A stretch of 64,000 nt of DNA from assembly GCA_028717245.1 (NCBI GenBank), contig JAQUOD010000002.1, forward strand, positions 140,772 to 204,771, given 5' to 3'. Of the stretch, positions 6,001-57,000 are shown in pieces (position 1 is the stretch's first letter; each line of letters starts with the position of its first letter). This stretch comes from Candidatus Omnitrophota bacterium (GTDB lineage: Bacteria; Omnitrophota; Gorgyraeia; Gygaellales; Profunditerraquicolaceae). A program made the position numbers and the translations under genes. Under the pieces are notes generated by a model. It saw only the letters and a list, made by a program, of their open reading frames with translations. It did not search any database and was not told the DNA's origin.

Positions 6001-9000
6001 AAGACCGGGTCCAAGAGATTAGTCCTAATCTTATTGGTCCGCTTAGCATCGAACAGCAAAGAGACATCGTTGATTATGTCCTGCAAGAGGCGCAGCCGCA
6101 GATATCTTTTGACCAGGTTATTCCAGTGCGGGAAAAACAGGCTTATAAAAAATTATTTGCCAGATACGAAGGATATAAAGCGAGATTAGAAATAGACCAG
6201 ACTGTCCCGCTACCTAAATATTATTATGTATATTATGCTAATAATCCGGTAGGTGGTTTAAGAGTAAATTTAGAAAGTAGAAGTATTGATTCTAAATGGT
6301 TTGATGTAGGCACAAAAGGCGTCTTCTGTAATGATTATCTTCCCGCAATAGCTACTACAGGAAGGTTTGTCCCTGAATATGTCTGTGTGCTTATGGCCTT
6401 GCCTTCAGATATTGAATCGGCTGTAAGGCCAGAGATATGGGAGGTAATAGAAAATAAAGGGAATAATATCATTTTTCGTAAGGATGTGCCTTTTGATTAT
6501 AACCAAATAATACTTATAATAGACGAAGAGCGCATAGGCCGGGATGAACTTAATCAATTAAAGGAGTTCGTCGATAAATATAAGCTAACCCTCATCAGCC
6601 TTCAAGAGGCACAATTGGAGGCAGAACTGCTTTTTGAAGCGCGCAAACTCTACGACCGTGCCAGTCTCATTGCAGAAGGAAGGTTAACCTTAGATGAAAT
6701 CAGGATTTATGACAGGCCGGATAATATGGTTGAGTTTTATGAAGATTTACGGCCCGGAGATATAGTAGCACTTACCGATAACGAAGCGTATAGAGAAGCA
6801 TTCAAATTAAAAGTTTACGGCTATATTACCGAAGAAAGAGGAGATAAGTATGTGAATTTCTATCACCATCGCCTGGGTAGAATGCAAAGGAAGAAAATTG
6901 ATATTCCCGATAAGGTCTTGGGGAGGGATTATTCTCCTTGGTTTGGCATATATGCTACGGAGTATAAAAGTTATGACCTTTATCTAATCCGGCCTACTAA
7001 CGTGGTAATTCCCCTTGAGTTTTTATCTTATCTACATTTTTATGAAATCCTTGCTTCTGAGGAATATTCCTTGAAATTAAGCTTAACCCCTAAGTTACCC
7101 AGTAAGGGCATAAACTATTTAGATACCCTGTTTTCTCTACCTGAAGAGACGATAAGTGTGGCCTTAGAGTATTATAAAGAGGCAATAAGGATTATGGCGC
7201 TTCCTGAGCCCGAAGAGTATATTTACCGCCTGAGTCGTGAGCCTACTCCTAAAAACGTACGATTGCTATTACAAATTACCCGGATAATTCTTTATGAAAA
7301 AAGCCCTGATTTAGTACCTCAGGAAGTTATAAGCATGCTTCACAATGTAGCTGAATATAAAATTAAAGAAATTCCGTTTAGCTATAGAGATTGGGCTAGA
7401 TACATATTAGAGGCAATTGAAGGCAGAAGAAATGGGGGTACTGCTGGCTTTATGGATGATTCACTTCAGCCCTCCCTCGTGGCAAAGTACATTAAGGATA
7501 TAAAATATACTCCCTTACGGCTACTCTTGCAAGTATTCTTCGCGCCTGCCATTGTCCCCCATGAAATTGCGCATCTGCTCAGGGCTATTAAAAGGAAAGA
7601 ATTAAAGGGATTCAGGCCAAGGCATCTACTGGAAGGCATCCCTATCTTAAAAACCGGCCTGCCCATCTTGAGACTAGAAGGCTGGATTACCAATATCGTA
7701 TTGGCCGCTATATCTCTCATAGTATTATGCCATGCCCCTGCCTTAATTATTATCTGGATATTTCTTACCAACTTATTTCTCACCATATTTGAGCCATTAT
7801 TAAGTTTCAAAAATAATGAAGGCGATTTTATTTCGGAAAAAAAGAAAGGGCTTTCGAATCCATTTATTGCCGGCTGCCTGTTGCTTTTTATTCCGGTGGT
7901 TTCCGGATTTATCATAAATTCATGCAGTATTTTAAATATCGAATCTTACTTTTTCATAATTGGTTTAGTTTTATTAGTTGCGATTCTGGCGATTTTCATT
8001 CTTAATTACCCGGATAAATGGTGGTCGGATTTTAATGCCCCCTCCGCCAGAGAACACAAAACCCTTAATTTATATAAGAAACGCATTATGGAAACGGTCT
8101 TGCATTGGGCTGAAATGTTATTGCTATCCGACCAAAGTCCGCTTGTAGTACGTGGTGCCATCACAGACTTATCTGACTTCGTTGTTGAAAATAAAAATGA
8201 AATCGAATCCTCAGAGTTTATTAAGCGTTTAATTGAAGAAGTAAAGGATTTAGGTTGGCTTACCTATAATGCCATGGTTTCCGCCTTAGAAAAATTAGGC
8301 GCTACCAAAGAAGAGTGGTTGGATTTTTGCGAGATTAAAAATGTAAAAAGCATAGATAAGCTTACTTACAACGCCATAAAAGGCCTATTAGTAAAGTTAG
8401 GCGCTAACGAAGAACAGATGGCATATTTTTATAATCAGGCAAAAGCGGTTGGTTCAGATGCGCAAACCCGTCAAGCCGCTGAAGGATCATTGATAGAGAT
8501 TATCAATTCAACTTCTAATAATGGATTATTGCTGAGATTATTATCGTTAAATGAAGGGGAGGATGATTTTAAAGTTAACCGGGCTATACGTAGGGCGCTG
8601 GATTTGTTAGCAGCCCAGGCAGTACTCAAGCGAGGGTATCCTGAAGGGGCCATACCAGCCATATCAGAAGAACTCAAGAAATTACTCTCTGAAATAGGCC
8701 CTTCTTTGAGCCAAGGTTTAAGGCTAGAGAATACTGAACTATTAAAGGAAAATCTCCGGAAATTATGCTCATTAATTACTGAGAAAGGCCATATAAATGT
8801 TAATTCTCCCAGCCCATTGATTAGGCTTCTGGTGACCAGCCTGAATAAGGAAGATGTCTTTAAAGTAATAGACCAGGCTGTCTCCATTGAGAAGAAACGG
8901 GAATTAAAAAAGATTCTGGTAAGCTGTGTTGCAGTTTCCCAACTAACTTATATCATCTTAGCCTTATTGGGTCTTGAGGTAAAAGGCGTTATTGCGCCTA

Positions 9001-12000
9001 TGCACGCTTTTACCTTAATCCCTCTTTCTGGTGGAAGGGTTTTATTTGTAGATTTTAGTCTCAAGCTGATTTTAGAGATAGATCTTCTAGAACATTATCA
9101 AGAAGAAGGAGAAGGCAAATACCTGGTTCTAAAACCAGAATACCGCATTACTCCTGAAAGATTACTTGAGCTTCAGAGGCAAAAAGAGCAAGGAATCTTT
9201 AGATACGATAGATTAACAGAAGAAGAACTATTTAGCCTCTTCTATTCTTATATACAGATAACCGATGGTTATGCCTTAACTTCTGCTATGTATAACAACC
9301 TCGGTAACACCTACGCTAAATTAGGCAGATATGCTGAGGCAATAGCAGAATATCAAGCGGCCTTAAGGCTCAATCCTAACTATGCTGCAGCCCACAACAA
9401 CCTCGGTGGCACATATTTTATATTAGGCCAGTATGCTGAGGCAATAGCAGAACATCAAGCGGCCTTAAGGCTCAATCCTAACTATGCTGCAGCCCACAAC
9501 AACCTCGGTCGGATCTACTTTGGATTAGGTAGATATCCTGAGGCAATTGACAGTTTGGCAAGAGCAGTTAACTTACGCCCAGAATTAATAGATAATCTTC
9601 GCAAGATAGAAAGCGTAAGGCAACTGGTAAAGGCGAGGGCAGAGGAGTTAGCTAAAGAAAACAATCATGGCCTTGCCTCCGCAGCCCAGGCAGCGATAGA
9701 GGAGGAGGATAACCCCAGCCGCACAGGAGAGTCCGAATCCCCCCAGCGTGGCGAGCGGGGAGATTTTACCAAAGAACAGATATTAAACATCCGCCAAAAA
9801 ACTATTGCCATTGCTGAAGGAAAAATGCAGATAGTGGAAATGCCCTGGGTAAATATGACTTTAAAGGAACGGCGCGATTCCTTCAAGGAGCGGCTCTCCA
9901 GAGAGGCTCCTGCCAGAGACCCGCCTTTAGCCGTTGGCCATATTGAAGTCCTGGCTGTTGCTGAAGAAGATAATTTCCGCGCCATGGCACTCGATATTAA
10001 CGGTGAGTGCGTCCTTCTCCTTACCAAAGAAACCTACCTAAAAGAATTTTCCGAAAAAACCCTCGACCACGAAGTATTGGAGTATTGCCTGGGTGACCAT
10101 AATAAAGCAGTAGCCTTAGTTAAGAAAGAAGAAAAAGAAGAAAACTTCATCCAGCGCCTAAAGCAAACCTTAGATAGCAGTGATATCCAGAATCTGCCCA
10201 AGGTATACCAGGCTTTGGATAAAGACCCGGAATTATTAAGCCTTAAGGCTGATCGTGCCAGGCAGCTATATAAACATTTTGATGATTTAGGTAATGAAGT
10301 ATATAACCAAGGCCGGGAAGAAGAGGCTATCTCCTGCTATAAGTTAGCTATCCTCTTTGCCAGGCGTGCCGGCGCCTTATTTGTGCACCGTAATGAAAAG
10401 CAGTGGATAGGCGATATCAGCCTTTTAGGAGGCAAGATCTCTAACTCTTTGGATATGATGACTGGGAATTTGGAGGTTCCGCCCTTCTTTGGGACAACCA
10501 GCGTCCTGCAGAAATACCTCTGGCTGTATAACCAGCTGTTGAAGCCGATGCGCGAGATTGCTTTTGACGTAGATGCCCAGTATGACGTGGATATCTCTAC
10601 TGCCGAGGGCCGGATGAAGGATATGGTTAACAACGCTAATTTTTCCGAGGACACAGCAGAGGCTATGTGGGAAGAATTAAAGGCCATTGCCGCTGCCGAG
10701 GGATTAGATCCGATCGAGCTTGTTGAATTTATCTTCAGAAGTTCGCAGGGTTTAGAGGATTTGCCGGGCATACCTTCTGCGGGTATCGGCGATAGCATTC
10801 CGGTGCTGGGCAGGATTGAAGATGCAATTAATGTATTTAAGCAGGTTGCCGGCTCCACTTACAATAAGCGGGCATTCCAGTACCGCGATAAGGTAGCTGT
10901 CTTCAGGTGGTTGATGTATGAAACGACCCTTAAGGATTTAGAATATCTGATAGAGACCATCGAAGAACTGAATAAAGAGGTTAAGCGATTTGAGGTTGCG
11001 GGCATCACCAGGGATATTGAGCCCATATTAAAGGATTTAAAAGAGAATATCTCGCCGATAAAACGCGAAAGAAAACAAATGTGTTATGTTTCCTCAAGGC
11101 GCATATTGGCATTATTAGAACTGGCCAAGGGACGTTATCCTGAGAGGCGTTTTCTTGTTCAGATGATTTCTTCCTTAGAAAAAATAAGGACAGAGAGCCT
11201 GGATCCGGTAAGGATCGGCGGCGGTATACAGGTGCAGTTGATGCGCTCCAGCGAAGTATCCTTTGTTGGTTTTACGGTGAACAAGATAACCGGTTGGACT
11301 GGTTTTAGCAATGGCCTGGCAATTGTGGATTTTGATGTAGCCTATGGCCGGGGGGAGAATATTGTCCAGGGCCGCATTATCACTGACCACTACAAGATAG
11401 CCATTAACCCTCAAACAAAAGCTGTGGTTATCCTGAATAAGACCTGCGGTTCTAAGATAGCTATGCTTAAGCGTGGTGAACCGGGGCAAAAGTATCTGGC
11501 CTGGAAGGATATAAAAAATGGCATTACCGAGGAGATTACTGCCCAGTTAGGAAAGGAATACAATATGGTTACTCCGGAAGAGATGCGCAATAAATTCGTC
11601 ATCTCTGATGAAGAGGCAAAAGACTTTGCCTTCAGGGCCTACAGGACGTACCAGGTGCATAATAGGAATAGGCCCCAAACACCCATTCCTGTAGATTTAG
11701 AGGCTTGCCTCTATCGTGATGCGCGAGGCAAGAGGCAGTATTCTATCGTGCAGAAGAGAGACTCTGCCTTAAGGAACGGTTTTGATTTTGAGGACCCGGA
11801 TATTCTGGAATTAGTGATGCGCGAGGTTGTTGCTTCTGATGCTGAAGAGGCCCAGGCAGAAGGCCGGCTGGTTGGCCGGGGTTTTGAGACGCTCAATGCT
11901 GCTGCGGGCACCTCTTTTTGGGTAGAAGAAATCTCCACAGAAAGGATAAGAACTGCTTTGCTCCAGATTTGGGAGGAAGGTAAAGACGAATCTGCGATTG

Positions 12001-15000
12001 AAGATTTAATCCCGGAAGGCTTCTCTCAACTGTCTGAAAAAGAGCTCCTGATTTTAAGTAAGAACCTAACGCAAAATAAGGGTTCTCTCTCTGAAGAAGA
12101 GCAGATCGCCTTGATTAAAGAGAAAAAGGCGGTTAAGGGGCTTTATGCAAAAGAGGAGCTTTCAACTTTAGTTAATCGTATAAGGAGGCTGCAGGAGTTG
12201 GCTGAATCAGGGATCCAGCAGGACTTTGATGTTGAAGGGCTGCAAAGAGAATTAGCCAAGGATACAGCCGGCATAATCAGTAAAGGAGAGCCTTTAAGTG
12301 AAACAGAAAGGCTGACCCGCAAAGTCTTGGTTGATGCTGCGATAACACAAACTAGTATAGAACGTATTATTCAGGGCATAGAAAAGCTCTATAAATTTGA
12401 GGCTGATGCTGACGGCAGGCTGAATTTATTCTCTTTAATCATCAGGTTGAATCTTTTCAGCAAACCCAAGGGAGATTTAAAGAGTGCCTCCCTGGAAGAA
12501 GAGACAGCTAAATTATCCCGCCAGCTTTTAGACCGGCAATTTGAGATAGTCAAGTCTTTTGATAATGTTATTCTGGTTGCGCCGGAGACCAACCCTAATT
12601 TTAATGATATTATGCAGTTGGTAGATACCAAGGGCGGCGCTACTGTCACCTTGCAGGGGGGCCCGGGAGCGCACGCGATTATTATTGCCACTCAGTTTGG
12701 TTATTGTGTAGTAGGCGGGGTACAATTTGCCGATCCTAAGATATTAGATAGGATCAGGAATGGCGAAAGGCTGCCCTTGACCGTAGACGGCAACAAGGGC
12801 CTTGTTTATTCAGGGAAGTTAGGTATTTCCGAGTTCTCTATCCTGAATCAGGTAAGCCGCTGGGGGAATTTCGGCAAAGAGATCGGATTGATTACTAATG
12901 CCACCAATGAATTAGAAAAGGCCGCAAAGCTTGCCAGGTACCAGGTCGTTGTCAACAAAGAAAGATATCCTTATATGCACGAGGATAAGGTAGGCGCCTA
13001 TATGGTCAGCTTGGACAGGATTGAGGAGATATTATTGCTTTTAGGTATTGACTTCAGGGCAGCATTTGCCTATGGCAGGCTACAGGCTTTAGAAAGAGGC
13101 GAGCTAAAGGAACTTGATTTAAACCAGCAGCAGCTAAATGATGTTGAGAAGATGCGCGCCAGAAAGGATGTCCAGGAGAAGATCAGAAACAAAATACCCG
13201 GCTTTGCTACGCCGGTTGAGTTCTTGCGCAAGTCCCTAAGTTACCACTTCTTACAGATGGTTTCGGTAACCCGGCCGGGCCAGATAGTTCAGGTCAGGGA
13301 AAGAGACTTTAAGAAAAGAGAAATTAATAAGACCCAGATTGGCGCTGAGCTCTATTATAACGATGAAGAAGCCTCTATGATTGGTGACCGCGGCAGCGGC
13401 CTTGAAGTAAGGGATGAGAATATCGAGGCGCTGGACCTTCAGCTTATGGCTGTCTCTGATGCCATAAAAGAGGCTAAAAAATTAGGCAATGTAGGAGATA
13501 TTGGCTTTATGTTTGTATTTAACCGCAAGATAGATGATTTTAAGAAGGCCCTGGGGAGAATAATTGATCTTTACGATAAAGGGATATTAGAAGAAGTGCC
13601 TAAGCAGGTAGGGGCGATGTTTGAACTAGGGATTAATGCCATATTGGCTGACCGGCTAATGCAGGCCCTGCTTGATTTCCAAAGAGAAATGCGTAAACGG
13701 GGAATAGAGCTAAAAGTTTACATCTCTCACGGCACAAATGACCAGACCCAGTCTGTTAAAGGCAGCAGGGATGAGGTCCGTTACATAGCTATAGATGCGT
13801 TCCTTCCTGGCGGAAAGAGAATAAAGGATATCCGCACCTTTTATGAGGGCGACAAAGGGTTGGTGGATAATGTAAAACATGGCAATGCCGTAGCAAGCAA
13901 AATGGGCGTTAAAAGTGGCCTTTGCGGTGAGGCGCAAAATAGCCTGATTACCCGCGGTAGCCCTGATGCCTTAGATGCCTGTTCAGACATAGCCAGCGGC
14001 CTTGATTCTGTTGGCGGCAGCGTGAAAAACTATTCCAAGCTGGTAAAATTATACGCGGATATGCAACTAAGCCGGCAGTCTATCCCTGAGGCAGTGATAA
14101 GGAGAGCAAAGGTTATTGCCAAGGGTATATCTTTGTTTAATAAAGGCGCTGATGTAAGAAGGGTTGTGTTTATCAGGGATTTGAATGATTTATTTAAAGA
14201 GCATATTATCTTAAGAGATGGCGCAAAACGTAAAGAGACGCGTAAGATCTCCAGGGTAGTGGAAGGGGATATTATGATTGTTGCCAGCGGCATTAACAGC
14301 GATAATCCGGACTTCCTTAAAGCCTTAAATCGCCGCGATGGCTATGCCAGCGGCATGGTTATTACAGGGCAGATAGAAGACAACAGCCCTCTCCTTTACA
14401 AGGCGAGGCAGTTAGGCATACCCACCATGCTCGTAGAAGAGGATTTATTTAATAATAAATTAAAGGATGGCCGGGAATGTGCTTTTGATTTCCAGCGCGG
14501 CCTGATCTGTGAGGTTGAGGGCATCAGTTTTGATATTGCGCCTCTGGTTGACGACACAGCTTACACGACTATAAATTGGAGCGCAGAACCGGCCACAATT
14601 AATACGAAATCTTTCTCTATGGATGAGATATACCGGGAAATAGGCCTGCATCCTTTGGCATTACTGCTCTATGCTTATCATACCGGCGAAATCCCCAACC
14701 CCCTCATAGAAACACGGCCTGACGGTGTTCAGGTAACCAAACTTGACCTTATCTTCTCGCAGCATAAAATACCTCTTCCTCGAGAAAAGCTCCCGGAAGT
14801 CTATGCTGATGTAAAAGAGCGCCTCAAGGATTATCAGGTAACCAGCGTAAGAGAATTATTAACCAAAGTATTCCTGGCACAATGCAATGCCGCTAAAGAA
14901 TCATTAGGTAAAGATACCCGTTTGGTATTTGAAACCTCTAAAGCTGATGTCTGGTTTTTTGAGACGCTTAAATGGGGTAAGCGCGAGACTGAACTTGAGC

Positions 15001-18000
15001 TGAATGTATTTAACGTGCCCATAGACTTAAGGGGCCTCTTAAAGACTATCTCTCTTGGCTATGGTGATTTGTTTAATATCTTCCTTGAGTTGGTTCAAGA
15101 GCAGCGCGAGGAAGGCAATGATATCGCCATCCAGCTGGATTATGTCCAGGACCCCGAGAAACTGGATTTGGCCTTAGAGTTCCTTAAATATTACGGCCTT
15201 ACCTCTAATATAGGTATGGAAATAGCCACTACCCATAACTTCGTCCGCGCAGCGGATTACTTTACTAAAAGCAGGCTGATTGAATTTGTAAGTTTTAATG
15301 ATGACCTTTTACTGATGAACTTTGCCTTAGCTAATTTAGACCATCATACTGATGTCCTGCTCTGGACCGGCCAGATGGTTCCCCTTATTGACAAGAATGA
15401 AAAAGATTTCCAGGATGCTTTAAAGATAGCCAGGGCAATGGTCAAGACAGCTATGGTAGATAGAGGAATATTATCAGCTCTGCCTGTTGAAGTTCCGAAG
15501 CGGAATAAGGAAGAGGGTGGTCAAACTAAAACTAATAAAAACCTCTCCAAAGGACTGACTCCAAAGGATGAAATTCCTATCAGGCAGGCAATAGAGTTAG
15601 CTTTTGCGCAAGGAAGAGTAGAGGAACCGAGCCAGAGAATGAAAGAAGTTTTTTGTCAGTATGCGCAAGATTTGCGCAAGCGAAGAGAGGAGGGCTCGGC
15701 GAGATTGCTGGAGAGGGCAGAATTTAGATTGGTTGAGCAGCCGAAATCAGAAATCAAATCCCGTTCCCCGCCTTATTGCCTCTGGTATAAATCCCCCGAG
15801 AAATTTCTCGTAGCTTGTGTCTATGAATATGAAGGAAATAAAATCATCCTCCTGCCTTCTTATTTAGTAGAACTCCTCCTATACCACAAAGAAATAGATT
15901 TACTTATCCGGATTTTATCCCACGAAGCAAGGCATATCTATAGGCCTTTTACATCAGATCAAGAACACAATCAAGATGTAGAAGATATACTTATTAAGTT
16001 AGAAGAATTAGAGAAGAGGCTAAAAGTCATAAGCCCGGATTATCAAGGCGGACTTTTAGAGATAATTTCAGGGCAGAGCCGCCTTATCCAGGCAGCGCCT
16101 GAAGGCCGCGCAGGAGAAGAGCTGGCCGTAATACTGGCAAACACCCTGTTAAACAAAGAAGCCACATTTAGAGCGCGAAAAGAAGCAGCAGAGGGATTAG
16201 CTAAGTTAGACCCTCAAATTACATTATCTGTTTTTAGAGCAGTATTAAGCGATGGGTTCACGGCCTCGCCTTTATGCCAGATATTAATTGAGCTTACGGC
16301 AGGGATTGGCAGCGCCGAGGCGGTTGAATTAATCATAGATGTATTAAATCATAGCAGTTGCCTGTTGGTTAGAAAAGAGGCAATTTTGTTGCTGGAGAGG
16401 TTTAATGATGAGAGGATTTATCCGGCGCTATTGCCTTTTCTTAAAACAGGAGGCGATATTCTCTTTGAAACCGCCGCGGGTGTGCTTTACGCGTATAAAA
16501 AGAAGAATCCAGCAGCATTTAGAGAGTTGGAGGAAAACAGTTTTAGTATTGTCTTCCTAAATCATCCTAATCCGGGTTATATGGATGCCCGTCAGTTACT
16601 TACCGAAACAGAAAGGGTTTTAGAGAGTGTGGGACTGTCCTTCTTTTTGAGTAATGGGCGCGAATACAGGTTTGATTATGTAAGGTCCATATTCATAGAT
16701 TTAGGATTTGAGATAACAGCGCAATATTTTGGCAGGGATATACCCGCCAGCTATCCGTTAGCAGCAACCGCAGGCCAAATAATTGAACTATACGGCCGAG
16801 AGGAACTTTATCTGATAGTTGCCAGAAAAAATGGACTGCCGCATCGCCTCGCACCTTTAAAAGTGCAGGATGCTCAACCTTCCGTGGCTGGTGGGGGGCA
16901 TTTAGGCGGTGCGGCAGTTATTTCGGCTCAAGGGCCGTTCTTTGACAATGGTGGAGGCGTTAATAAAACAGCCGAAACCTTAGAAAACCCCGGACCCTTA
17001 AGTTTAGAGTCAAAGGTAAAAAAATATGCCATAGATTTATGCTCTATTGATGAGGCCGTCCACTCCGGGGCATTAAGAGCCCTGGTGGAGATGGGAAGCA
17101 TAGCTGTTCCTTACCTGATTAAGATATTAAGAGATACTGACTGGTATCATGAGAATAACTTTCACATCCGCTTATATGTAAAAGAGGCCTTAGAAAAGAT
17201 TGGCTCACCGGCTATCCTTTACCTGATTGAGGCATTAGAAGACAGCCACAGCGATGTCCGCTCTGACGCAGCCGACGTCTTAGAAAAACTCCATGCCTTA
17301 ACCGTAGAATTAAAGATGAAAAGATACATTGTAGATTTAAGCGATAATGACAGCAGTGTCCGTGCCCAAGCAGCTGAAGCTATGGGTGATATGGGCCTGC
17401 CTGCCGTTCTCCTCTACCTGATGAAGGCGCTAAAAGATAGTGATATTTATGTCTGTTACAAAGCAGCCGAAGCCTTAGGAAAAATCGGGCCTGCGGCTGC
17501 ACCAGCTGTTTCTGCGTTGATTGAGGCCTTAAAAGCAAAAGAGAAGGAGTATAGTTGGTATCTGCGTTCCTACGCAGCCCAAGCTTTAGGAGAAATCGGC
17601 ATAGCCTCTATGCCTGTTATCGATGCCTTGACGGAAGCCGTAGAAGATAGTAACAGCGATGTCCGCGCCAAGGCCTGCACAGCCTTAGAAAAACTCAATG
17701 CCTTAACCGTAGAATTAAAGATAAAAAGATACATTTTGGATTTACGCGATAATATCTCCGGTTCAGCCCAAGCTTTAGGAGAAATCGGACTCCCGGCTCT
17801 CTTCGCTTTAGTTGAGGTATTAGAAGATAAAAATCTTAACAGCAATGTCCGTGCCCGGGCAGTTGAAGCCATAGGGTATATGGGCCCGCCTGCTGTCCAC
17901 TACCTGAAGAAGGCATTAAAAGATAGTGACGCGAATGTCTATTACAAAGCAGCCGAAGCCTTAGGAAAAATCGGGCCTGCGGCTGCATCTGCTGTCCGCC

Positions 18001-45000: not shown

Positions 45001-48000
45001 AAAGGAAAAACAAGGGGATAAGAAGCAATGATGCGCAACACCAATTAGATATTATAGCCTTGCTTTTACAGGGGATGCCGGTTGCTCAAATAAAAGATGC
45101 AAGAGGCATTTGGTATGCCCGCTCGCGCCCGACAGTCTATAAACTTAGAGATGAAGCCTTGGCGAGGCTGTTCTACGGAAAAAGATTAAACAGGACAAGG
45201 GAATTTTTAATCAGGATAGGAAAGCTGCGCCAGGCGTCTTCCATGTCTTCGGAGGAGTTTCTCAGCGAGGCTGTTAGAGCAATAAAGATGGATAAAATCG
45301 CTTTGGCCGATGGTATCTCTTTATCAGAAATAAGCCTGCCTGATAATTGGGATTGGAAGAAAAAGAGTATTTTAGAGTTAGGCTCTGGCTTAGGTTACAA
45401 TGCCTTTTATGCCTATTATCAAGGCGCTAAAGAAATACGCGGATTGGATATCTCGATACGGGCAATAAGATTAGCCGGGGAGTTATCTAAATATCTTGAT
45501 GATGCAGAGGTTAAAAGGGCTATTTTTAGCGATTCTCCCGACGACATCGTCCAAAGGGCCAGCGATATAAAAAGGGAGGCAGAAAAACAAACGGCTAATA
45601 TAACTTTACACCGGCCAGAAAATTTGGCCTTTCGGCAGCACGATATCACCACGCGCCTGCCCTATGGGAATAACTCATTTGATATGGTTAACGCAACATT
45701 CATATTACATCGCTTAAGTAAAGAAGGGCAGGAATTTGCCATTGAGGAGATGTTGAGAGTTATTAAAGCCAATGGCCTTGTGCACGCTACTCTTTTGACA
45801 AGCCGCGAGATAAAAGAATTGTTTGTAAAGGCAGCAGAGATTTTACAGCAGGAAGAAAAAATGCCTGTCTCTTATGATATTAGTATTTCTGGCAAAGGCA
45901 CAGGATGGTTGGTTAAGGTAAAAAAGGCAGAAGTAGGATTAACAGAGGAAAGCAGGGAAGGCACGCTTGCCGAGGCGTTACGGGATCTTGTTGATATGCC
46001 CCTAACCAGCGCTGAGTTACGGGAAAAAAGAGGCGTACACAAGAAAACCGGGAAATTCTTCCACATCAGCGTATTCCACAAAGAGCTCAATGGCTTAATG
46101 AAGTTTGGCTTGGTGGAGTTAAAAGACGGAGAGTATTTCTTGACTGAAGTCATAGCGCGGGCTCCGCCGGAAGCAAGAAGAAAAATTGTTGAAACCCTCA
46201 TTAAAGAAATTCCCGAACTCAGCCGCGCAAGCCTTTCTAAATTCTCTCCCGAAGAAATCGAGCGGATAAAAGGCAACATAAAGCAGGCCTTACAAAAATT
46301 TTTCATTGCCTGGAAGCTTAGCTTATTTGAGGCTTACCCGGCCCCGCTGACGCCAAAAGGCAATGCTGCCTTGTCAGAGGTAAAACAAAGGCTTAATTCT
46401 AAGGCATTAACCCCTGAAGATAAAGAAGAGATTCTTAAGCTTTTGAGTAACCCTCCCTTTGAGTGGTTTGAGGGATATTTTAAAGGAATAGATAAACAAA
46501 AAGTGTTGGAGTGCCTTTTTAAATATTTATCGAACTTTAAGGTAAGTGTCACCGAGGGCTGTTCAGTGCAATGCGATTATTGTATGCGGGCAGCAGGAAC
46601 AAAAGTCTCCTATATGCCTTGGCCTTGGGTTTATGAATTAATAAAGTTTTCGGCAGAATATAGAGAGTTTCTTAAAAATAACCGCGATAATCTGCCCCTT
46701 TATCGTAATGAAGAAGAATTAAGTTCGTTTGGCAGCTGGTTTGATAATGACCCTATGCGTGATTACTATGACCCGATTTACGATAAAGATTACGCTGACA
46801 TTATTTCTGAGGTAATAAAAAATAATGCTGTGTCTTACGAGGGTGTACACGCTCCTACGTCGGGTTGGGAGATCGGTTCAATAGGCGAACGCGCGATGCG
46901 CAAGCTCATAGGAATAAAACACGAATATTCTTACCTTATGATTCATATCAGCTTTAACATAAGCGCGGAGAAAGAGTGGTTTAGAAGAATAGGGCGCGAA
47001 GAATATATCCGCCATATGAAGGCAGCGTATGATTTGGCACGGGAAGTACGTCTGATATTTGAAGCGAGTTTTGAAGTGGGGGGTTTTGAGTATTGGTCAA
47101 CCGGCCCTGTGGACGCAGAATTAATACAAGCAATAGTAGGGAAACTCCTTCCGCATCATTTAGAGTTGATATCCCAGGAGTGCAAACCAGAAAGAGTGGG
47201 CAGGGCCATCCAATTCCCCGAAGAAAAAACGCGAAAGTATATAAAAGAGAAGCCGGTTATTCTTTTTCGGCCAAACATAGACATCATCGTTTTCGAGCAC
47301 GACAAAAAAGGCCGAATAAGCAAGGAATCTTTATTGCCGGTTTTGAGCAAACAAAGCCAACCTGAAAGCATGGTATCTAAACGCGTCAATCTAAACCCTG
47401 ATATTTCCCTGGATGGCCCAGAAACGCAAAAACGGGATAGGGTAAATGAAGAATTTTTGTTGAGGCTATCTCCACACCTAAAAGAGGCGTTAAGAATCCT
47501 TGAGGATTTAAGAAGGGAAGGGATTGTGCAGCATTATTATCTTGCCGGCAGTTTAGCCAGAGGAGATTTTAAAATTCCGCCTAAGGATGTTGATTTTGCC
47601 ATTAGTTTGACGGTGCGCGGGTTTAATGAGTGGCTTACCTATCAAGATAGGGTAATAGAAGGCCTGGAAGACTTAAGAAGGAAAACAGGAATAAATTTTG
47701 TAATTTCATCTACTGAGCCGTATGGCCAGCTATATAAAGTTGGCGAATCGGGTATTGAGCCGGAAGATATATTGCGGCCGGATATAATAGAGAAGACAGA
47801 GGACGGCAAGGAATGCATTCTTATTGATTTAGGCGGTGCTTATAAGTATATCTTCACTAAAAATGATTTCTTTGTCGAATTGTATCGCAAGATCCGCGAT
47901 TATAATAAGAAGAGGCAATCTACTCAACCCCAAAAAATAATTGGCCCTGGCGCCCCGCACATCTCAAATATTTTACTAATTCTGGTTTCTGCGGCTATAA

Positions 48001-51000
48001 TCTGGTCGTTTATCAATGGCCATTGGCAGGCAGGTTTAACTGCTGCATTTATTCCATCTTTTATGGGCGGCCTGGGCGCATCTAACCCGCTTGAATACGC
48101 AAACAGGGTTAAAGAAAAGGCGGAAGAGCTTTTACAAAAGAAAAACGCCGCAGAATTACCTGAAATGGAAGTAAGGGCGTATGAAGAGATATTAGAATAT
48201 CTTCAGTTAGCAATCGCGGGAGATGAGTTTGTAGATGGCAGCACAACAGAAGGCTATGAAGATATTATAGAAAGTGGAAAATATGACGATAAATTGAAGG
48301 ATGAAGCAAGGCGTAATTTAAAATCAGTTTACATGGAGATGATTGAGATTTACCAAAAATTATCCCGCCTGACAGGCGAGGATTATATTGATGCAATACT
48401 CGGTTCTTATAATGAGGCAATAAGGTATAATCCCAAAGATTTGGAACTACACGCAGGATTAGCAAAATATTGCTTAAAGAATGGCCTGCTCTCCACTCTA
48501 TCCGAAGCAATAAAATACCTTTCCCAGACTATTGAGGGGCAATTGAAATTAGCCCGGGTTTATTCAGATTCAGAAATGTATGAAAGCGCAAAAAATGAAG
48601 CCTTTGGAGTTTTAAGCCGCGAGCCGGACAATACTGATGCTCTCGCTCGTTTATTATTTCTCTATAATGTCATAGGCGATATGGATAGGGACAGGGTTAT
48701 TGCTGCGGCAGAGTATATTATAGACAATGCCTCTTTGAAAAAAAAGAAAGATGTTTCTAACGCTCTATGGCGGAGTTTTAATAACGTCCAAGAAGCATTG
48801 TTAAGAAGTGAAAAACTGGAAAACATATTAAAGAAGGCAATAGCGGCTTATCCACATCTGGGTGATAGATTTGGGAGGTTCCTGGTAGTATTGGGAATGA
48901 ACACAAAAGAAGAGATTGGGCAGTTGCAAGAAACCCAACTCGGCATAAATAAAAAAATCACAGCTTATCAACAGAAAATAGCATCTCAGATTAATCTTAA
49001 GTCAACCTGGCAGGGAAGGGAAAAATTTGTAATCGGAGTTTATAGGCAGGCCTTAGCCGATGGCATCATAGGCTCTGCCGAGATTCTAATTTATTTTTTC
49101 CGCGCCTCTTATTCTATTAACTATCCCCTTTATTTTATTTTGAAGGAAATAGAACCTCGCCTTCAACAAAGGCTTAGCCTCGGCGAAGCGGAAAAAACAA
49201 AACTTTTGCGCCAGTTGATAGAAGAAGAAACAAGAAATCATCAGTCTAAATTAAGCAATGAGGAGAAGGATGAGCTATGGGCAATCTCTAGTGTAATAGG
49301 AGGGGAATTTGGTGATGCCTGGTTGGAATGGATTGAAAGAATCTTTACCATCGTTTTACCATTTTTATTTTTAGGTTTAACTATTTGGCAGATGTTTCAG
49401 GGAGGGGGGATTCCAGGCGCGCCTTTGGTTGCCTTAGGAGTTATTCCTGCTATACGGCCACTTCCTGATTTAGTAAAAAATTTACGTCAAGGCCTTAAAC
49501 CTTTACCTAACGACAGCACAGTTTATCTGCCTGAGGGGAATATTGCCAAGAAAAAAAGAGGGCATAAGATAGGGATTATAGTTGCCACAGACGGTAAGAA
49601 AAAAATTAAATGGCATGCGAAAGAGCGTAACTTGCTTTTAAGAAACGAGGCAAACAAGAAAGAGTTAATGATTACAGTCTTGCTTAAAAGCCTTAAGTTT
49701 AGGCCTATAGATACAATCTGGGTTGGCGATACAGAATATGCCTTAATTCAAGATAGGGCTGATAAGAGAAATGTTTTTATGAGAAAGATAAAGAATGAGA
49801 GTAAGGACGGCAGCTTAATTTTTGATGGGAAAGAGGCGTATCAGTTAAGAAAAGGCGCGCGGGCAAGACTAATAATTAGCCTTGAGCAATTAAAAGAGAA
49901 TCCGGATGTAAAGAAATTTTACGGTAACGAACAGCAACAAAAAAATCTCCCGGGAAAAATCACTGAGGATGAGGCGCATTTCAGGGATTATTCCGAGGAT
50001 TTGCTGGAGAAGAACCTGGAGCTTTTTGTGCTTCTTTCCAAGAGGATGATGTTAGAAGGTAAGGAGAAAGAAGAGACGGCGCAAAGAAGGGAAGAGCTCG
50101 TAGGAGAACTCTTAGATTGCGCTATTAAGTACCATATTCAGAGGTTTAAGAATGATAAAACCAAAGTCAGGGTAGCCAAAATAAATAGAATGATTTTAGA
50201 AGCAGTGCAGCTGATTAACGCGGATAATGAAGTGGCAGCCCATGCAACTTTATATGGCGCAATAAACAGGATTAATGATATTCGCATAGAGTTGCTGAAA
50301 GCGCGGCTTAAGAAGAGAAGAGGGTATGGGCCAAAATTATGGTGGGATAGCAGCGCGGTATGTATTTCTCAACAGAGGTATATCGTCCCAGAGGGCGGTA
50401 GGAGGCCTATGTTAGGAATAGCCGTAATAAAGTATAGAACGCTCTGGGAGGCAATTAGGGGGACAGTTGAACAGGTTAATTCCGAGGCAATAGAGAAACG
50501 CTGGGCCGCTAAGAGCATAGAATTGGTTTCCGCAGCGCTTAATTTGATGGAGAGAGTCAAATCAATTCAGGATGGTGTTCCTGAAATAAAATTAAGCCAG
50601 CAGGAGCGCGAGGAGATAAAAGCAAAACTTAATAGTATGCTTAGCGCAATCGGCCAAGTGCGGGTTGAGGAGAAGAGGGCCGTGAGGCTTCTAATAAAAG
50701 CGGCCCTGGAGATAATATCATTGGGAGACAGGCATAATCTGACTGCCGAAGCATTTTTAATCATAGCTAGATACTATCTGCAAGAGAGGGAGGAAGATAC
50801 CGAGGCAATGATTAAATCGCTTAAGACTGTAAGCACCGAAGGATTAAGAGGCATGGCAAGGACCAGAGACAATTATGTATTAGAGGCTAGTGGAGAAATT
50901 ATTGATTTAATAAATAAGGATAAGTTAGGGGCTGCCTGCAACGAAATTAATAAAATGATGCGGCAATACGGCCTTACCCAAGAGCCCGAATATTTAATCC

Positions 51001-54000: not shown

Positions 54001-57000
54001 TACCAGGTGCATTAAAGGAAGCAAGGCGCCTCTATCGTGAAACAATAGAGGGCGACTTAATAAATGAAGGATATCCAGAGCCCATCGCTATTGTGGCAGC
54101 CAGGGAGAAGAGCCCGCGGGGATTAGCAGAAAGCCTGAAAAGCCAGATGCAAAGGGAGTCAACGCCTTACGGCGTGATTTTAGATAAGGCGCCTCAACAG
54201 GCAAAGGGTGCCTTGCGCGAATTTTTACTCGCGTTCTTAGAGAATAAGAATCCTGACTACATCCAATTTTTTGAAGGTTTGACAAAAACAGCCACTCCTA
54301 AAGCTATGACTGATGAGGTACGCAAAATTTATTCGACCGATTCGGAAATATTGAAAGAGTTTTTAGAAAAAGAAACCACAGGCCAATTTAGAGAATTAGT
54401 TAAAAATGTTGTTCGCCCGAATCTTCCTCAAGGGTTAATTTCATTAGTCCTGATACTCTTTCTTTCTGTAAGCCTCTTCTTTAGCGCTTGCAAGCCAGTC
54501 GGCCCACCAGCAGTTTCTAATAATCCTACCTCAACGCCTCCTGTTGTATCTACGCCCAACGAGCCGGAAATATCTTTAACTGATGCCCAGGAATGCAATA
54601 GTAAAGGTGTTGATTTGGTTGAGGCCAGAGATTATAAGAATGCAAAGAGATATTTTGAGAAGGCCATTGAACTCGACCCTAATTTTGCCGAGGCATACGC
54701 AAATATAGGAACGCTCTACGGTGAATCAACGGAATATGAGATGGCTATTGAATATCTCAATAAAGCAGTTTATCTGGATCCTAATTCAGCCGTTGCCTAC
54801 GCAAACTTGGGCAAGGCCTGGCTAAACTTAGCGAAATTTCCGGGAGATGTCAATCATGCGGTAAAATATCTTACCAGGGCCATAGAATTAGACCCTCGAT
54901 ATAAGGATGCCTATTACGATTTAGCTATTGCTTATAGGATAATAAAAGATTATGACCGGGCAGAGGGAGTTTTGCTTAAGTTAATTGAGAATAGGCCCGA
55001 TGATGCCAATGCCTACAAGAATTTGGGCGCGGTATATGTTAAGAAAGGCGATTTTCAGCGTATCGAAGTAGGCGATTTTATTCAGGCAGTAGAAGATTAT
55101 AAAAAGGCAATAGAGTATTTCCAGAAGGCAGCGGACCTCGATCCAAATTTACGGGATATTGTAGAATATAATATCAAGCAAATTAGGGAATCGATAAATT
55201 TAATGTGCCCCCAGGCGCATAATCCGATAGACTCATTACCGCTTGCCTTGATGGCGGCTGGCGTTGTTCCTCTGGGAGTAAGAGGAGGGAAAAAGAAAAG
55301 AAAAGAAAAAATCATTGGCGAGAGAGAAGAAAGATTCTTTGTTTTTCAAGGCGAACTTAGCAGATTTATCCGAATAAGCGCCGAGAAATTTAAGGCGATA
55401 ATCTTGGAATTACAGCCATATAAGCCACTGGTTGAAGAACAAAGAAAAGAAATCGGGGAATTCTTAGAAGCCTTAGGAGAAATTGGCAGTTTAAGAGAAG
55501 ATTATTTGATGGAGGAAGATTATCCTTATATCTGCGATGGTTATGCGAAGAGAATGGTAGGGATTCTAAGAAGATACGGGCTGAGTGCTGAAGAGGAAGC
55601 CCGGCAATGGCCGGAATTAAAGCCGATTATGGAAGAGTTTGTAAAGAAGTTTGGAGAAAAGATTGAAGTTTATTCTGAACACCATTTTGTCCGGTGCAGA
55701 ATTGCCGGGTACGATTTCATTCTTGATATTACTGCTGACCAGTTTGAAATAAGAGACCTGACAGGTAGATACCAGCAATTAGGCATTGTGGTTTTGCCAT
55801 CGGTCATTGCTCAGAGAAATCCTGCAAGATTCTGGATGTATAATTGCAAGTTATCTGAATCATTTGCCGAAGTTCTTGAAAAAGACAGGCCGATTATGCT
55901 TGAAGCGTTTTGTGATATCCTAAGAGTCCTTAACGAAGGGGCAAAAGCGAGGTTATCTACAATTTTGTGGCCTGCAGTTAGAGCTTCAATTAATAAATTA
56001 AATCAGAGGGAATTACCCAATGAAAAGGAAATTTTTCCGAACCAAGTTAGAGAATATCCAGGTGACCCATGGGGCATCCTGCCTAATAAAGGCTCGACAG
56101 CGGATTTCTTGAAGGATTTATGGAAATTTAGAGATATCCTGAAAGATTATCCGATAATTCCTGCTCAGCGGGGTCAAATAGAAATTGCCAATAGCGAAAC
56201 AATAATATGGAGGCGGTTGCATAAAACAAGAGGGGCTCCGCAAGGCTTGCCTTTTAGCCGCGAAACTTTAAGGCAAGAAATACTCGCCGCCCAAATATTA
56301 GGTTTTCTCGACGAAAACCATAAAATTACCCCTAAGCTCCTGAATCTCACCCATGAGCAGTTAAATGAAATCTGCAATATTCCCAAATTAACCCAGTCTC
56401 CTATTAGGGTAATCAACTTAAGGAGAAGGCCAAAAAGACTTCTGATAGAAATTGATTTCGCCATTTTTGGGTTTGGCAAGATAAATCCAAGAGTGAGGCA
56501 GTTAGCCATCCAAGTCATTGCCGCAGGAAAAGAGTTAAGCCGGATTACGGATGAGGAGGCCAGGCAGGATGTTGAGGATTTAGTTCGGCTTTATCAGGGG
56601 ATGAAAATAGATGAATTCCTGCAAAATAGTTTTGACAAATTATCTGCAGAAGAAAAATTGGCGTGGTTAAGAGCGCTTATAGAAAAGAGGAAAACAGAAA
56701 TAGAATCATTGGATTTTCGCAGGCTTGCATCTGGTGGGGTTGATTTGGCAATCTCTGCGTTATTCCGGGCCTATAGGGATAAGGAAGTGAAGGAGCCTGT
56801 AAAAGGGATGCTTAAAGATATTCTTTTTTATAAATGCAGGGGCCCGATTGAGCCAATTACTGCAAATAATGTTGCAATCTACCTTGAAGAATTATCTAAA
56901 ATGTATGAGATTTACCAGCCGTATAAAATCACGAAAGAGACGTTAAAAGGCACAGCCACAGTTTTGACGAGTTTCTTATTTTATTGGGGAGGCAATATTT

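Follow-up and report, generated by a model that had tools for sequence, protein, structure and literature searches.

We analysed a 64,000-nucleotide stretch of a Candidatus Omnitrophota genome (assembly GCA_028717245.1, contig JAQUOD010000002.1, positions 140,772 to 204,771 of the forward strand), here called the window. Frame +3 contains no stop codon across 21,332 codons (nucleotides 3–63998); the other five frames contain 656 to 1,973 stops each, and elsewhere in the window just three short open reading frames (ORFs) of at least 150 amino acids (aa) are listed. Frame +3 is thus open throughout and exits at both ends, so that the gene must be longer than 64 kb and the window covers an internal part of it. 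A first-pass annotation had suggested a multiply membrane-anchored cytoplasmic megaprotein at 7620–54500. The hydrophobic clusters lie there, but the ORF runs past both ends of the window, which had been overlooked. Residue i of the translation corresponds to nucleotides 3i to 3i + 2.

Pfam scans of the entire frame +3 translation revealed a long series of soluble domains (Table 1), among them at least seven helix-turn-helix (HTH) domains (at least five GerE and two HTH_3) and four S-adenosylmethionine (SAM) methyltransferases. A NUDIX match was weak (E 0.018). No SecA-DEAD, C39/S8 peptidase, glycosyltransferase, dockerin or TSP3 domain was detected by these scans in the 21,332 residues.

The Pfam-recognisable domains fall between hydrophobic clusters which, as had been proposed, separate blocks of soluble enzyme-like domains. 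Using a Kyte-Doolittle (KD) scan (19-residue window, mean ≥ 1.6), we obtained 35 segments, and clusters among them match all 13 positions given by the first-pass annotation. After curation, the helix counts were four for clusters A and I, five for H, two for B to G and J to L, and one plus a distant partner for M. The earlier description of clusters of two to five helices thus holds for A to L and fails for M, which has a single helix at its assigned position and a partner 244 residues downstream. The earlier list was also incomplete: it missed this partner (55224–55280) and a candidate fourteenth cluster, A2 (8913–9038), whose N flank has six Lys or Arg (K/R) residues per 20 aa. In total, hydropathy calls give about 34 helices in 14 clusters, or 3.3% of residues. 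They form 16 pairs of ~17- to 24-aa helices with turns of 0–24 aa, plus one wide pair (244 aa). Isolated KD hits at aa 5427, 6118, 6374, 9211 and 20835 are best read as soluble-core helices; that at aa 9211–9229 lies in the core of the enolase-like domain, where every homologue conserves it. The clusters gave no significant match to Pfam even at E ≤ 0.5 and none to PDB sequences. We rejected the idea that the hairpins are copies of one repeated cassette: the repeats detected by self-BLAST are TPR, HEAT, GerE and a few unknown domains, and none of them covers a hairpin.

How much of this would arise by chance was estimated from shuffled sequence. At KD ≥ 1.6, shuffles yield 31–34 segments, so the observed 35 are no excess, and the raw count was dropped as evidence; the match reflects the high Ile and Leu content of the protein. 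With the threshold raised to KD ≥ 2.0, 20 segments remain, versus 6.8 ± 2.6 in shuffles (maximum 13), about threefold, and adjacent pairs (≤ 60 aa apart) number 15 versus 1.8–3.2 (maximum 9). The strong segments are 19–24 residues long, uncharged and arranged in tight pairs. The signal therefore resides in segment strength and pairing, not in number. The clusters are real and non-random.

The turns of the 16 tight pairs contain 7 K/R in 126 residues (5.6%), compared with 113 in 680 (16.6%) in the 20-aa outer flanks (Fisher p = 0.0009) and a protein average of 13.5%. A first version of the comparison with 15-aa flanks gave 13 of 164 in turns and 68 of 417 in flanks (p = 0.008). Immediately after hairpins G and M the chain is highly basic (8 and 9 K/R in 20 aa, respectively), and 4–5 K/R in 20 aa precede hairpins E, F and K. 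Helix counts and charge bias were the measures by which the first-pass annotation had proposed to judge topology. We carried out a TopPred-style enumeration with 27 strong helices, 13 optional ones and either start side (2^13 × 2 = 16,384 topologies), each scored as K+R inside minus K+R outside. The model with all hairpins formed and the bulk inside has 84 K/R inside and 9 outside (score +75) and ranks 9 of 16,384. Its mirror image, with the bulk outside, has 9 inside and 84 outside (−75). Strong helices only give 50 inside and 23 outside (+27), and adding the odd helix of cluster H to all hairpins gives 57 and 40 (+17). The eight tied best models differ from the all-hairpin model solely in isolated candidates and in the A2 partner helix, which just half of them keep. 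All eight include the weak partners of B, H, J, K, L and M, and all leave out the odd helix of cluster H (aa 12078–12097) and the enolase core helix. The odd helix, which is hydrophobic, rich in Pro and Cys and followed by HEIIGH, probably does not span the membrane; the most plausible reading of cluster H is a tight hairpin on either side of this non-spanning helix. AlphaFold2 on the single sequence of this cluster gave a mean pLDDT (predicted local distance difference test) of 46, at which the span count is not readable. Cluster M is best read as a wide hairpin in which the partner helix restores even parity.

Cluster M has a further peculiarity. Window 54432–54570 and 55224–55310 comprise an internal lipoprotein-signal-like segment, GLISLVLILFLSVSLFFSAC, a Pro/Thr/Ser-rich linker, the TPR domain, the weak helix and RGGKKKRKEK. 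The segment and the TPR domain may descend from a lipoprotein gene that became fused into the ORF, or may serve to expose a TPR loop in the periplasm. We discarded aa 18144–18164 as a bacterial lipoprotein signal, as it is internal, 18,000 residues into the window, and as F-S-A-C is not a canonical L-[AS]-[GA]-C lipobox.

It is very probable that the hairpins keep the soluble blocks on the same side of the membrane. That side is most likely the cytoplasm, a placement in which we have moderate confidence, because the flanks are K/R-rich, the enumeration favours the bulk inside and the domains are of cytoplasmic type (HTH domains and ATP-, SAM- and acetyl-CoA-dependent enzymes). From the observed ORF continuity, hairpin pairing, charge bias and domain identities, we infer membrane insertion, the side of the bulk and a function. 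The architecture towards which we lean is a membrane-stitched chain of hairpin-joined blocks with its bulk in the cytoplasm. The polypeptide would be a chain of soluble blocks of 400–4,500 residues each, carrying glycogen, pentose-phosphate and lower-glycolysis enzymes, methyl- and acetyltransferases, hydrolases, DNA-binding HTH domains and TPR/HEAT scaffolds. The joints would be helical hairpins, in which a very short K/R-poor turn connects two hydrophobic helices, and some joints would consist of two adjacent hairpins. Each hairpin would enter the inner membrane co-translationally with its turn alone facing the periplasm, and the K/R-rich flanks and both adjoining blocks would remain cytoplasmic. 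About 14 tethers within the window would fix the chain to the inner membrane face, leaving < 2% of residues outside. A likely role would be to keep the huge chain at the membrane while it is being synthesised, with its enzymes and regulators in an ordered array; alternatively or in addition, the hairpins may mark the junctions of a polyprotein that is cut later.

Table 1. Features of the window, in order of position
Feature	Residues (aa)	Nucleotides	Strand	Evidence
Continuous ORF, 21,332 codons		3..63998	+	0 stops; exits both window ends
GlgB-type 1,4-alpha-glucan branching enzyme block (CBM48, alpha-amylase catalytic and C-terminal domains)	31-655	93..1967	+	Pfam E 1e-29 to 1e-18
Ribulose-phosphate 3-epimerase (RPE)	1511-1719	4533..5159	+	Pfam E 1.7e-41, full-length profile match
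Cluster A, four helices	2561-2583, 2584-2603, 2620-2640, 2648-2668	7683..8006	+	KD scan, curation
Candidate cluster A2, strong helix and weak partner	2971-2991, 2996-3012	8913..9038	+	Hessa 17-mer sums 0.7 and 7.3
TPR repeats	3094-3198	9291..9602	+	Pfam
PPDK/PEP-synthase-like block	3473-4644 (Pfam)	10170..15713	+	Pfam; collinear with standalone P0018, P0019
HEAT-repeat scaffold, internally repeated	about 5655-6228	16965..18686	+	Pfam, self-BLAST
Peptidase M54 (archaemetzincin-like)	6702-6843	20106..20531	+	Pfam E 6.8e-22
HD phosphohydrolase domain	7245-7345 (Pfam)	21726..22433	+	Pfam; end 38 aa upstream of hairpin B
Hairpin B, turn 6 aa	7515-7535, 7542-7559	22545..22679	+	Hydropathy, topology enumeration
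Hairpin C, turn 24 aa	8101-8123, 8148-8167	24303..24503	+	Hydropathy
Hairpin D, turn 14 aa	9010-9029, 9044-9063	27030..27191	+	Hydropathy; ends 10 aa upstream of enolase-like domain
Enolase-like domain	9073-9610	27219..28832	+	Pfam match aa 9140-9542
Cofactor-independent phosphoglycerate mutase (iPGM)-like region	9659-10343	28977..31031	+	Pfam pieces
Hairpin E, turn 17 aa	10351-10374, 10392-10411	31053..31235	+	Hydropathy
Hairpin F, turn 4 aa	10880-10899, 10904-10923	32640..32771	+	Hydropathy
GNAT acetyltransferase and CheR-type SAM methyltransferase	11148-11557	33444..34673	+	Pfam
Hairpin G, turn 5 aa	11583-11601, 11607-11626	34749..34880	+	Hydropathy; basic stretch follows
Cluster H, two tight hairpins (3-aa turns) and odd helix	11991-12033, 12113-12156; odd helix 12078-12097	35973..36470	+	Hydropathy, enumeration
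SAM methyltransferase and HAD hydrolase	12461-12978	37383..38936	+	Pfam
Cluster I, double hairpin, turns 4, 8 and 10 aa	14093-14113, 14118-14137, 14146-14165, 14176-14197	42279..42593	+	Hydropathy
Array of GerE/LuxR-type and related HTH domains	14276-14560	42828..43682	+	Pfam GerE E 5e-40, 3 stretches
Hairpin J, strong helix and weak partner	14876-14895, 14911-14928	44628..44786	+	Hydropathy, enumeration
SAM methyltransferase (J-K block)	15191-15266	45573..45800	+	Pfam
Hairpin K, strong helix and weak partner, turn 4 aa	15986-16005, 16010-16027	47958..48083	+	Hydropathy, enumeration
Hairpin L, strong helix and short weak partner	16446-16465, 16472-16487	49338..49463	+	Hydropathy, enumeration
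Cluster M, first helix, ending lipobox-like FFSAC, then Pro/Thr/Ser-rich linker	18144-18163	54432..54491	+	KD scan
Predicted 244-aa loop with TPR domain	18164-18407; TPR 18197-18383	54492..55223	+	Pfam, enumeration
Cluster M, partner helix (KD 1.56), then RGGKKKRKEK	18408-18426	55224..55280	+	Hydropathy, enumeration; 9 K/R in 20 aa follow
Downstream block: metallo-beta-lactamase fold, GerE, two HTH_3 (XRE-type), further GerE	19013-21021	57039..63065	+	Pfam

Several points weigh against this architecture. The earlier suggestion that even-numbered hairpins would leave all blocks on one side agrees with the short K/R-poor turns, the basic flanks and the high rank of the all-hairpin model. It does not agree with the 244-aa TPR loop, which is predicted to be the only sizeable piece of the window outside the membrane and would be the one large exception to cytoplasmic tethering, nor with the parity of cluster A. 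There, helices 1 and 2 form one 43-aa stretch with a CHAP turn, and 3–5 spans are possible, which leaves the side of the first 2,560 residues (the GlgB/RPE block) less certain. The clusters, which had been called regularly interspersed, are spaced irregularly (gaps of 377–4,545 aa, coefficient of variation 0.9). The helix calls were made with hydropathy scales and the positive-inside rule and not with a trained predictor. Seven partner helices (B2, H2, K2, L2, M2 and the A2 partner, with J2 close) have Hessa sums of 3.6–7.3, and five soluble-core controls have 2.3–7.3, so in hydrophobicity the weak partners do not exceed the controls. Published TMHMM and DeepTMHMM runs put much of the content of such giants outside. 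The N-terminus of the giant gene lies beyond the window. The hairpin-bearing regions have essentially no homologues, and the relatives of the enolase block lack internal hairpins.

The relatives of the soluble blocks bear on the same question. The enolase-like domain is 51–64% identical to domains in multi-enzyme proteins of Omnitrophota metagenome-assembled genomes (MAGs) and one Elusimicrobiota MAG, which join it to PGK, GAPDH, TPI, iPGM or PPDK. The PPDK-like block is 47% identical to, and collinear over about 1,850 aa with, the standalone proteins P0018 and P0019 (2,170–2,179 aa). When the enolase-like domain was used as a query, GTDB genomes yielded 3 loci and JGI metagenomes 6, all with ≤ 67% identity and none with internal hairpins. 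Homology to the standalone enolase–iPGM protein P0003 begins 10 aa downstream of hairpin D, and the iPGM-like region ends 8 aa before hairpin E; at least hairpins D and E therefore lie at module junctions. The standalone fusion proteins (P0001–P0019, L001–L010) resemble the window in the enolase–iPGM order (P0003) and in their fused glycolytic enzymes. Unlike the window, they are 850–3,956 aa long and have at most one N-terminal signal-like segment and no internal hairpins. The only relative with a hairpin is P0005 (L002:7037-12109, from the Elusimicrobiota MAG), a protein of 1,687 aa with a signal-like N-terminus, iPGM, HD and enolase-like domains and a C-terminal two-helix hairpin (aa 1575–1638). 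Synteny of the giant ORF with the operons of the relatives was not found beyond single blocks.

Sec-signal-like N-termini are present in every one of the 13 complete standalone proteins homologous to the enolase-like or the PPDK-like block (P0001–P0003, P0005, P0007–P0010, P0012–P0014, P0018 and P0019); they consist of 2–6 K/R and a 13- to 24-residue uncharged stretch, often with an AxA-like site at its end. Taken at face value, these N-termini would mean that enolase- and PPDK-type enzymes are exported, and it is mainly because of them that our confidence in a cytoplasmic location is no more than moderate. Many of these homologues have several K/R right after the hydrophobic stretch, which is unusual in exported proteins. 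L005:1046-1200 was listed alongside the signal-bearing homologues. The neighbourhood of P0018 consists of housekeeping genes, including those for PFK, EF-P and AccBC. An exhaustive HMMER search with aa 7450–8600, which contain two hairpins, returned 2 weak hits in 1.84 billion representative proteins, and a word-indexed search with aa 10860–12200 returned none. Window 22350–25800 and 32580–36602 are large orphan stretches of the ORF.

Four other explanations were considered. One of them, compatible with any topology, is that the chain is a polyprotein from which cleavage near the hairpins releases individual membrane-anchored multi-enzyme proteins resembling the standalone homologues. The D–E blocks and the PPDK-like block match standalone proteins of 1,280–2,179 aa with one N-terminal hydrophobic segment, the chain contains an M54 metallopeptidase domain, HExxH-like motifs lie beside membrane helices at aa 2518 and 12097, and cleavage by C39/S8 domains was suggested for related proteins (West-Roberts et al. 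2023, bioRxiv 10.1101/2023.11.21.568195). We consider such processing rather unlikely, as no cleavage sites or processing protease were identified in the window, and the HExxH segments match no family and have no detectable relation to each other. The two motifs, HEIAH (window ~7509–7575, aa 2503–2525; 40 aa upstream of cluster A) and HEIIGH (36234–36308, aa 12078–12102), end Pro-containing hydrophobic helices. They are reminiscent of membrane-embedded zinc proteases and could be related to self-processing. A membrane-metalloprotease module shared by clusters A and H was considered and is unsupported, there being neither detectable mutual similarity nor a match in Pfam or PDB.

The same hairpins could also be inserted the opposite way, with the short turns in the cytoplasm and the blocks in the periplasm or at the surface, where they would form an extracellular coat or an enzyme array directed at prey. 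In each hairpin, the first helix would then be a stop-transfer sequence and the second an internal signal-anchor. The signal-like starts of all standalone homologues of two blocks fit this arrangement, as does the internal lipobox-like helix with its Pro/Thr-rich linker (aa 18144–18190). An extracellular coat has been proposed for the 39,678-aa protein of V. archaeovorus (Kizina et al., as summarised by Seymour et al.), most domains were predicted to be extracellular by West-Roberts et al., and for a multi-enzyme giant of 147 kAA a 2026 preprint (10.64898/2026.06.07.730766) assigns the content to the periplasmic/extracellular face. However, the K/R criterion gives the mirror topology a score of −75, the turns are K/R-poor whereas cytoplasmic loops should be K/R-rich, and the stretches behind hairpins G and M would have to cross the membrane with their 8–9 K/R in 20 aa. 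HTH domains and ATP-, SAM- and acetyl-CoA-dependent enzymes would be without substrates outside, and West-Roberts et al. themselves rate some extracellular placements highly unlikely. On balance, the opposite orientation appears unlikely.

An alternating topology, in which weak partners (B2, J2, K2, L2, M2) and/or the odd helix of cluster H change the parity and blocks lie on both sides, is still harder to sustain. The resemblance of the weak partners to soluble-core controls would allow it, as would the five hydrophobic segments of cluster H and the 3–5 of cluster A, and published predictors disagree over the number of helices in such proteins. Yet the scores of +27 without the weak partners and +17 with the odd helix fall far below the +75 of the all-hairpin model. 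The N flanks of K and M and the C flanks of K, L and M are strongly basic, which places the chain inside both before and after each of them. Alternation would also leave the SAM methyltransferase of the J–K block and the HTH domains after M outside. It is very improbable that the segments are buried cores or linkers of a soluble cytoplasmic giant, as might be read from the segment number at KD ≥ 1.6, the isolated hits that are clearly soluble (such as aa 9211–9229) and the absence of a confident AlphaFold2 model, because at least 20 uncharged, tightly paired segments of 19–24 residues reach KD ≥ 2.0, three times as many as shuffles lead one to expect, their positions are between and not inside recognisable domains, the charge asymmetry of flanks and turns would have no reason in a soluble protein, and trained predictors describe this protein class as rich in transmembrane (TM) helices.

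The window is a further member of the published multi-enzyme (Archaeovorin-like) giant proteins of Omnitrophota. These reach 85,804 aa and contain numerous TM helices together with PPDK and glycolytic domains; TM tools disagree on them and place most domains outside, a placement that the authors doubt (West-Roberts et al. 2023, 10.1101/2023.11.21.568195). The window shares with them a huge single ORF (at least 21,332 codons here, running off both ends of the window; the Archaeovorin-type criterion is > 30,000 aa in a single ORF; West-Roberts et al. 2023) and a TM-helix content of ~2–3% of residues (3.3% in the window; about 2% in the "multi-enzyme metabolic cluster" class of the 2026 preprint 10.64898/2026.06.07.730766). 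Common to both is a mosaic of methyltransferases, peptidases, NUDIX (weak in the window), PPDK, glycolytic enzymes, GNAT, HAD and HEAT/TPR. The Archaeovorin-type mosaic, which includes glycosyl hydrolases and no dockerins, is represented in the window by a GH13 GlgB, M54, PPDK, enolase and iPGM. Most, though not all, Archaeovorin-type giants have a divergent SecA DEAD-like domain and an N-terminal C39/S8 domain, neither of which was detected in the 21,332 residues of the window; both could be encoded beyond its ends. Sequence is poorly conserved among these giants, and the best homologues of the window come from Omnitrophota MAGs.

The published papers mostly place the content of the giants outside or leave the side open, whereas our analysis favours the cytoplasm. 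The membrane-anchored cytoplasmic idea of the first-pass annotation is not new and matches one published hypothesis: in the 2026 preprint (10.64898/2026.06.07.730766), the class with TM helices only (46%) is read as a membrane-anchored architecture with cytoplasmic domains, and giants with a signal peptide plus TM helices are placed outside. New here are the tight pairing of helices, the K/R-poor turns and the formal parity argument; hairpin pairing and charge asymmetry are not described in West-Roberts et al. 2023 or the 2026 preprint. According to the summary in PMC10066038, the 39,678-aa protein of 'Ca. Velamenicoccus archaeovorus' LiM has 42 predicted TM helices (Kizina et al. 2022). As far as that summary goes, it resembles the window in being a giant ORF with an even number of TM helices in a host-dependent, ultra-small member of the Omnitrophota, and it differs in that an extracellular coat was proposed, in contrast to the cytoplasmic placement favoured for the blocks of the window. 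The large ORFs of Chlorobium chlorochromatii and Ebh likewise combine extreme length with symbiotic or host-attached bacteria (PMC10066038, PMC11573180). Such giant adhesins and repeat proteins are secreted, dominated by repeats and have few or no internal TM helices, whereas the window is a non-repetitive enzyme mosaic with ~34 helices.

By analogy, the proposed architecture may be likened to the replicase polyproteins of coronaviruses and other plus-strand RNA viruses, in its even-span tethers and in a non-spanning segment (the odd helix of cluster H). Coronavirus nsp3, nsp4 and nsp6 are each said to span the membrane an even number of times, with their enzyme domains in the cytosol and some hydrophobic segments not spanning. 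The viral polyproteins have no sequence relationship to the window, are 10-fold shorter, are processed by proteases of their own and reshape the membranes of the host.

Among predicted proteins, none longer are known than the giants of Omnitrophota, whose function and location are disputed: predictors disagree, and extracellular and cytoplasmic readings have both been proposed. The present analysis offers a rule applicable to all of them, in which hairpins mean that adjoining blocks share a side, basic flanks identify that side as the cytoplasm, and the few exposed loops can be predicted. A broader proposal, which we hold with slightly more doubt than conviction, is that these giants are cytoplasmic, membrane-stitched metabolic and regulatory arrays, contrary to their reading as an extracellular coat or a weapon against prey cell walls. 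In such an array, a single translated chain, pinned by helical hairpins to the inner membrane face, would comprise the cell's own lower glycolysis (iPGM, enolase and PPDK), glycogen branching and dozens of regulators, and just small loops such as the TPR domain would reach the periplasm. If this is true, the functional debate moves from degradation of prey walls to membrane-tethered metabolism and regulation. It would also raise the question of how dozens of hairpins are inserted during the tens of minutes taken to translate one chain, and leaves the puzzle of why standalone relatives of cytoplasm-type enzymes carry signal-like N-termini.

The glycolytic part of the chain deserves a closer description. 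Three successive lower-glycolysis steps (iPGM, enolase and PPDK) are encoded in one polypeptide within window 10170–31031, and such embedded copies might be missed or miscounted by pathway surveys that use gene-sized hits. The enolase-like domain (aa 9073–9610) aligns with E. coli enolase (1e9i) in the metal-ligand (D, E, D), catalytic-Lys and His-Arg motifs (ALDIASSE/AMDCAASE, SVEDWADE/SIEDGLDE, IGDDN/VGDDL, QKPNQ/IKFNQ and SHRS/SHRS), and the active-site motif residues are invariant across 8 homologues. In the iPGM-like region the order of Pfam matches is unusual, with iPGM_N 135–215 followed by Metalloenzyme 171–233 and then iPGM_N 5–148, which suggests a permuted or duplicated region.

Self-BLAST also detected internal repeats of unknown domains with 26–30% identity, pairing aa 8189–8400 with 8603–8841, aa 19642–19793 with 20801–20949 and aa 1816–1968 with 18445–18599. 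The G+C content is even along the window (0.39–0.46). The coding strand is purine-rich throughout: the GC skew is above 0 in all 2-kb windows but one, the AT skew is positive in all but two, and the cumulative GC skew climbs steadily to 3.97.

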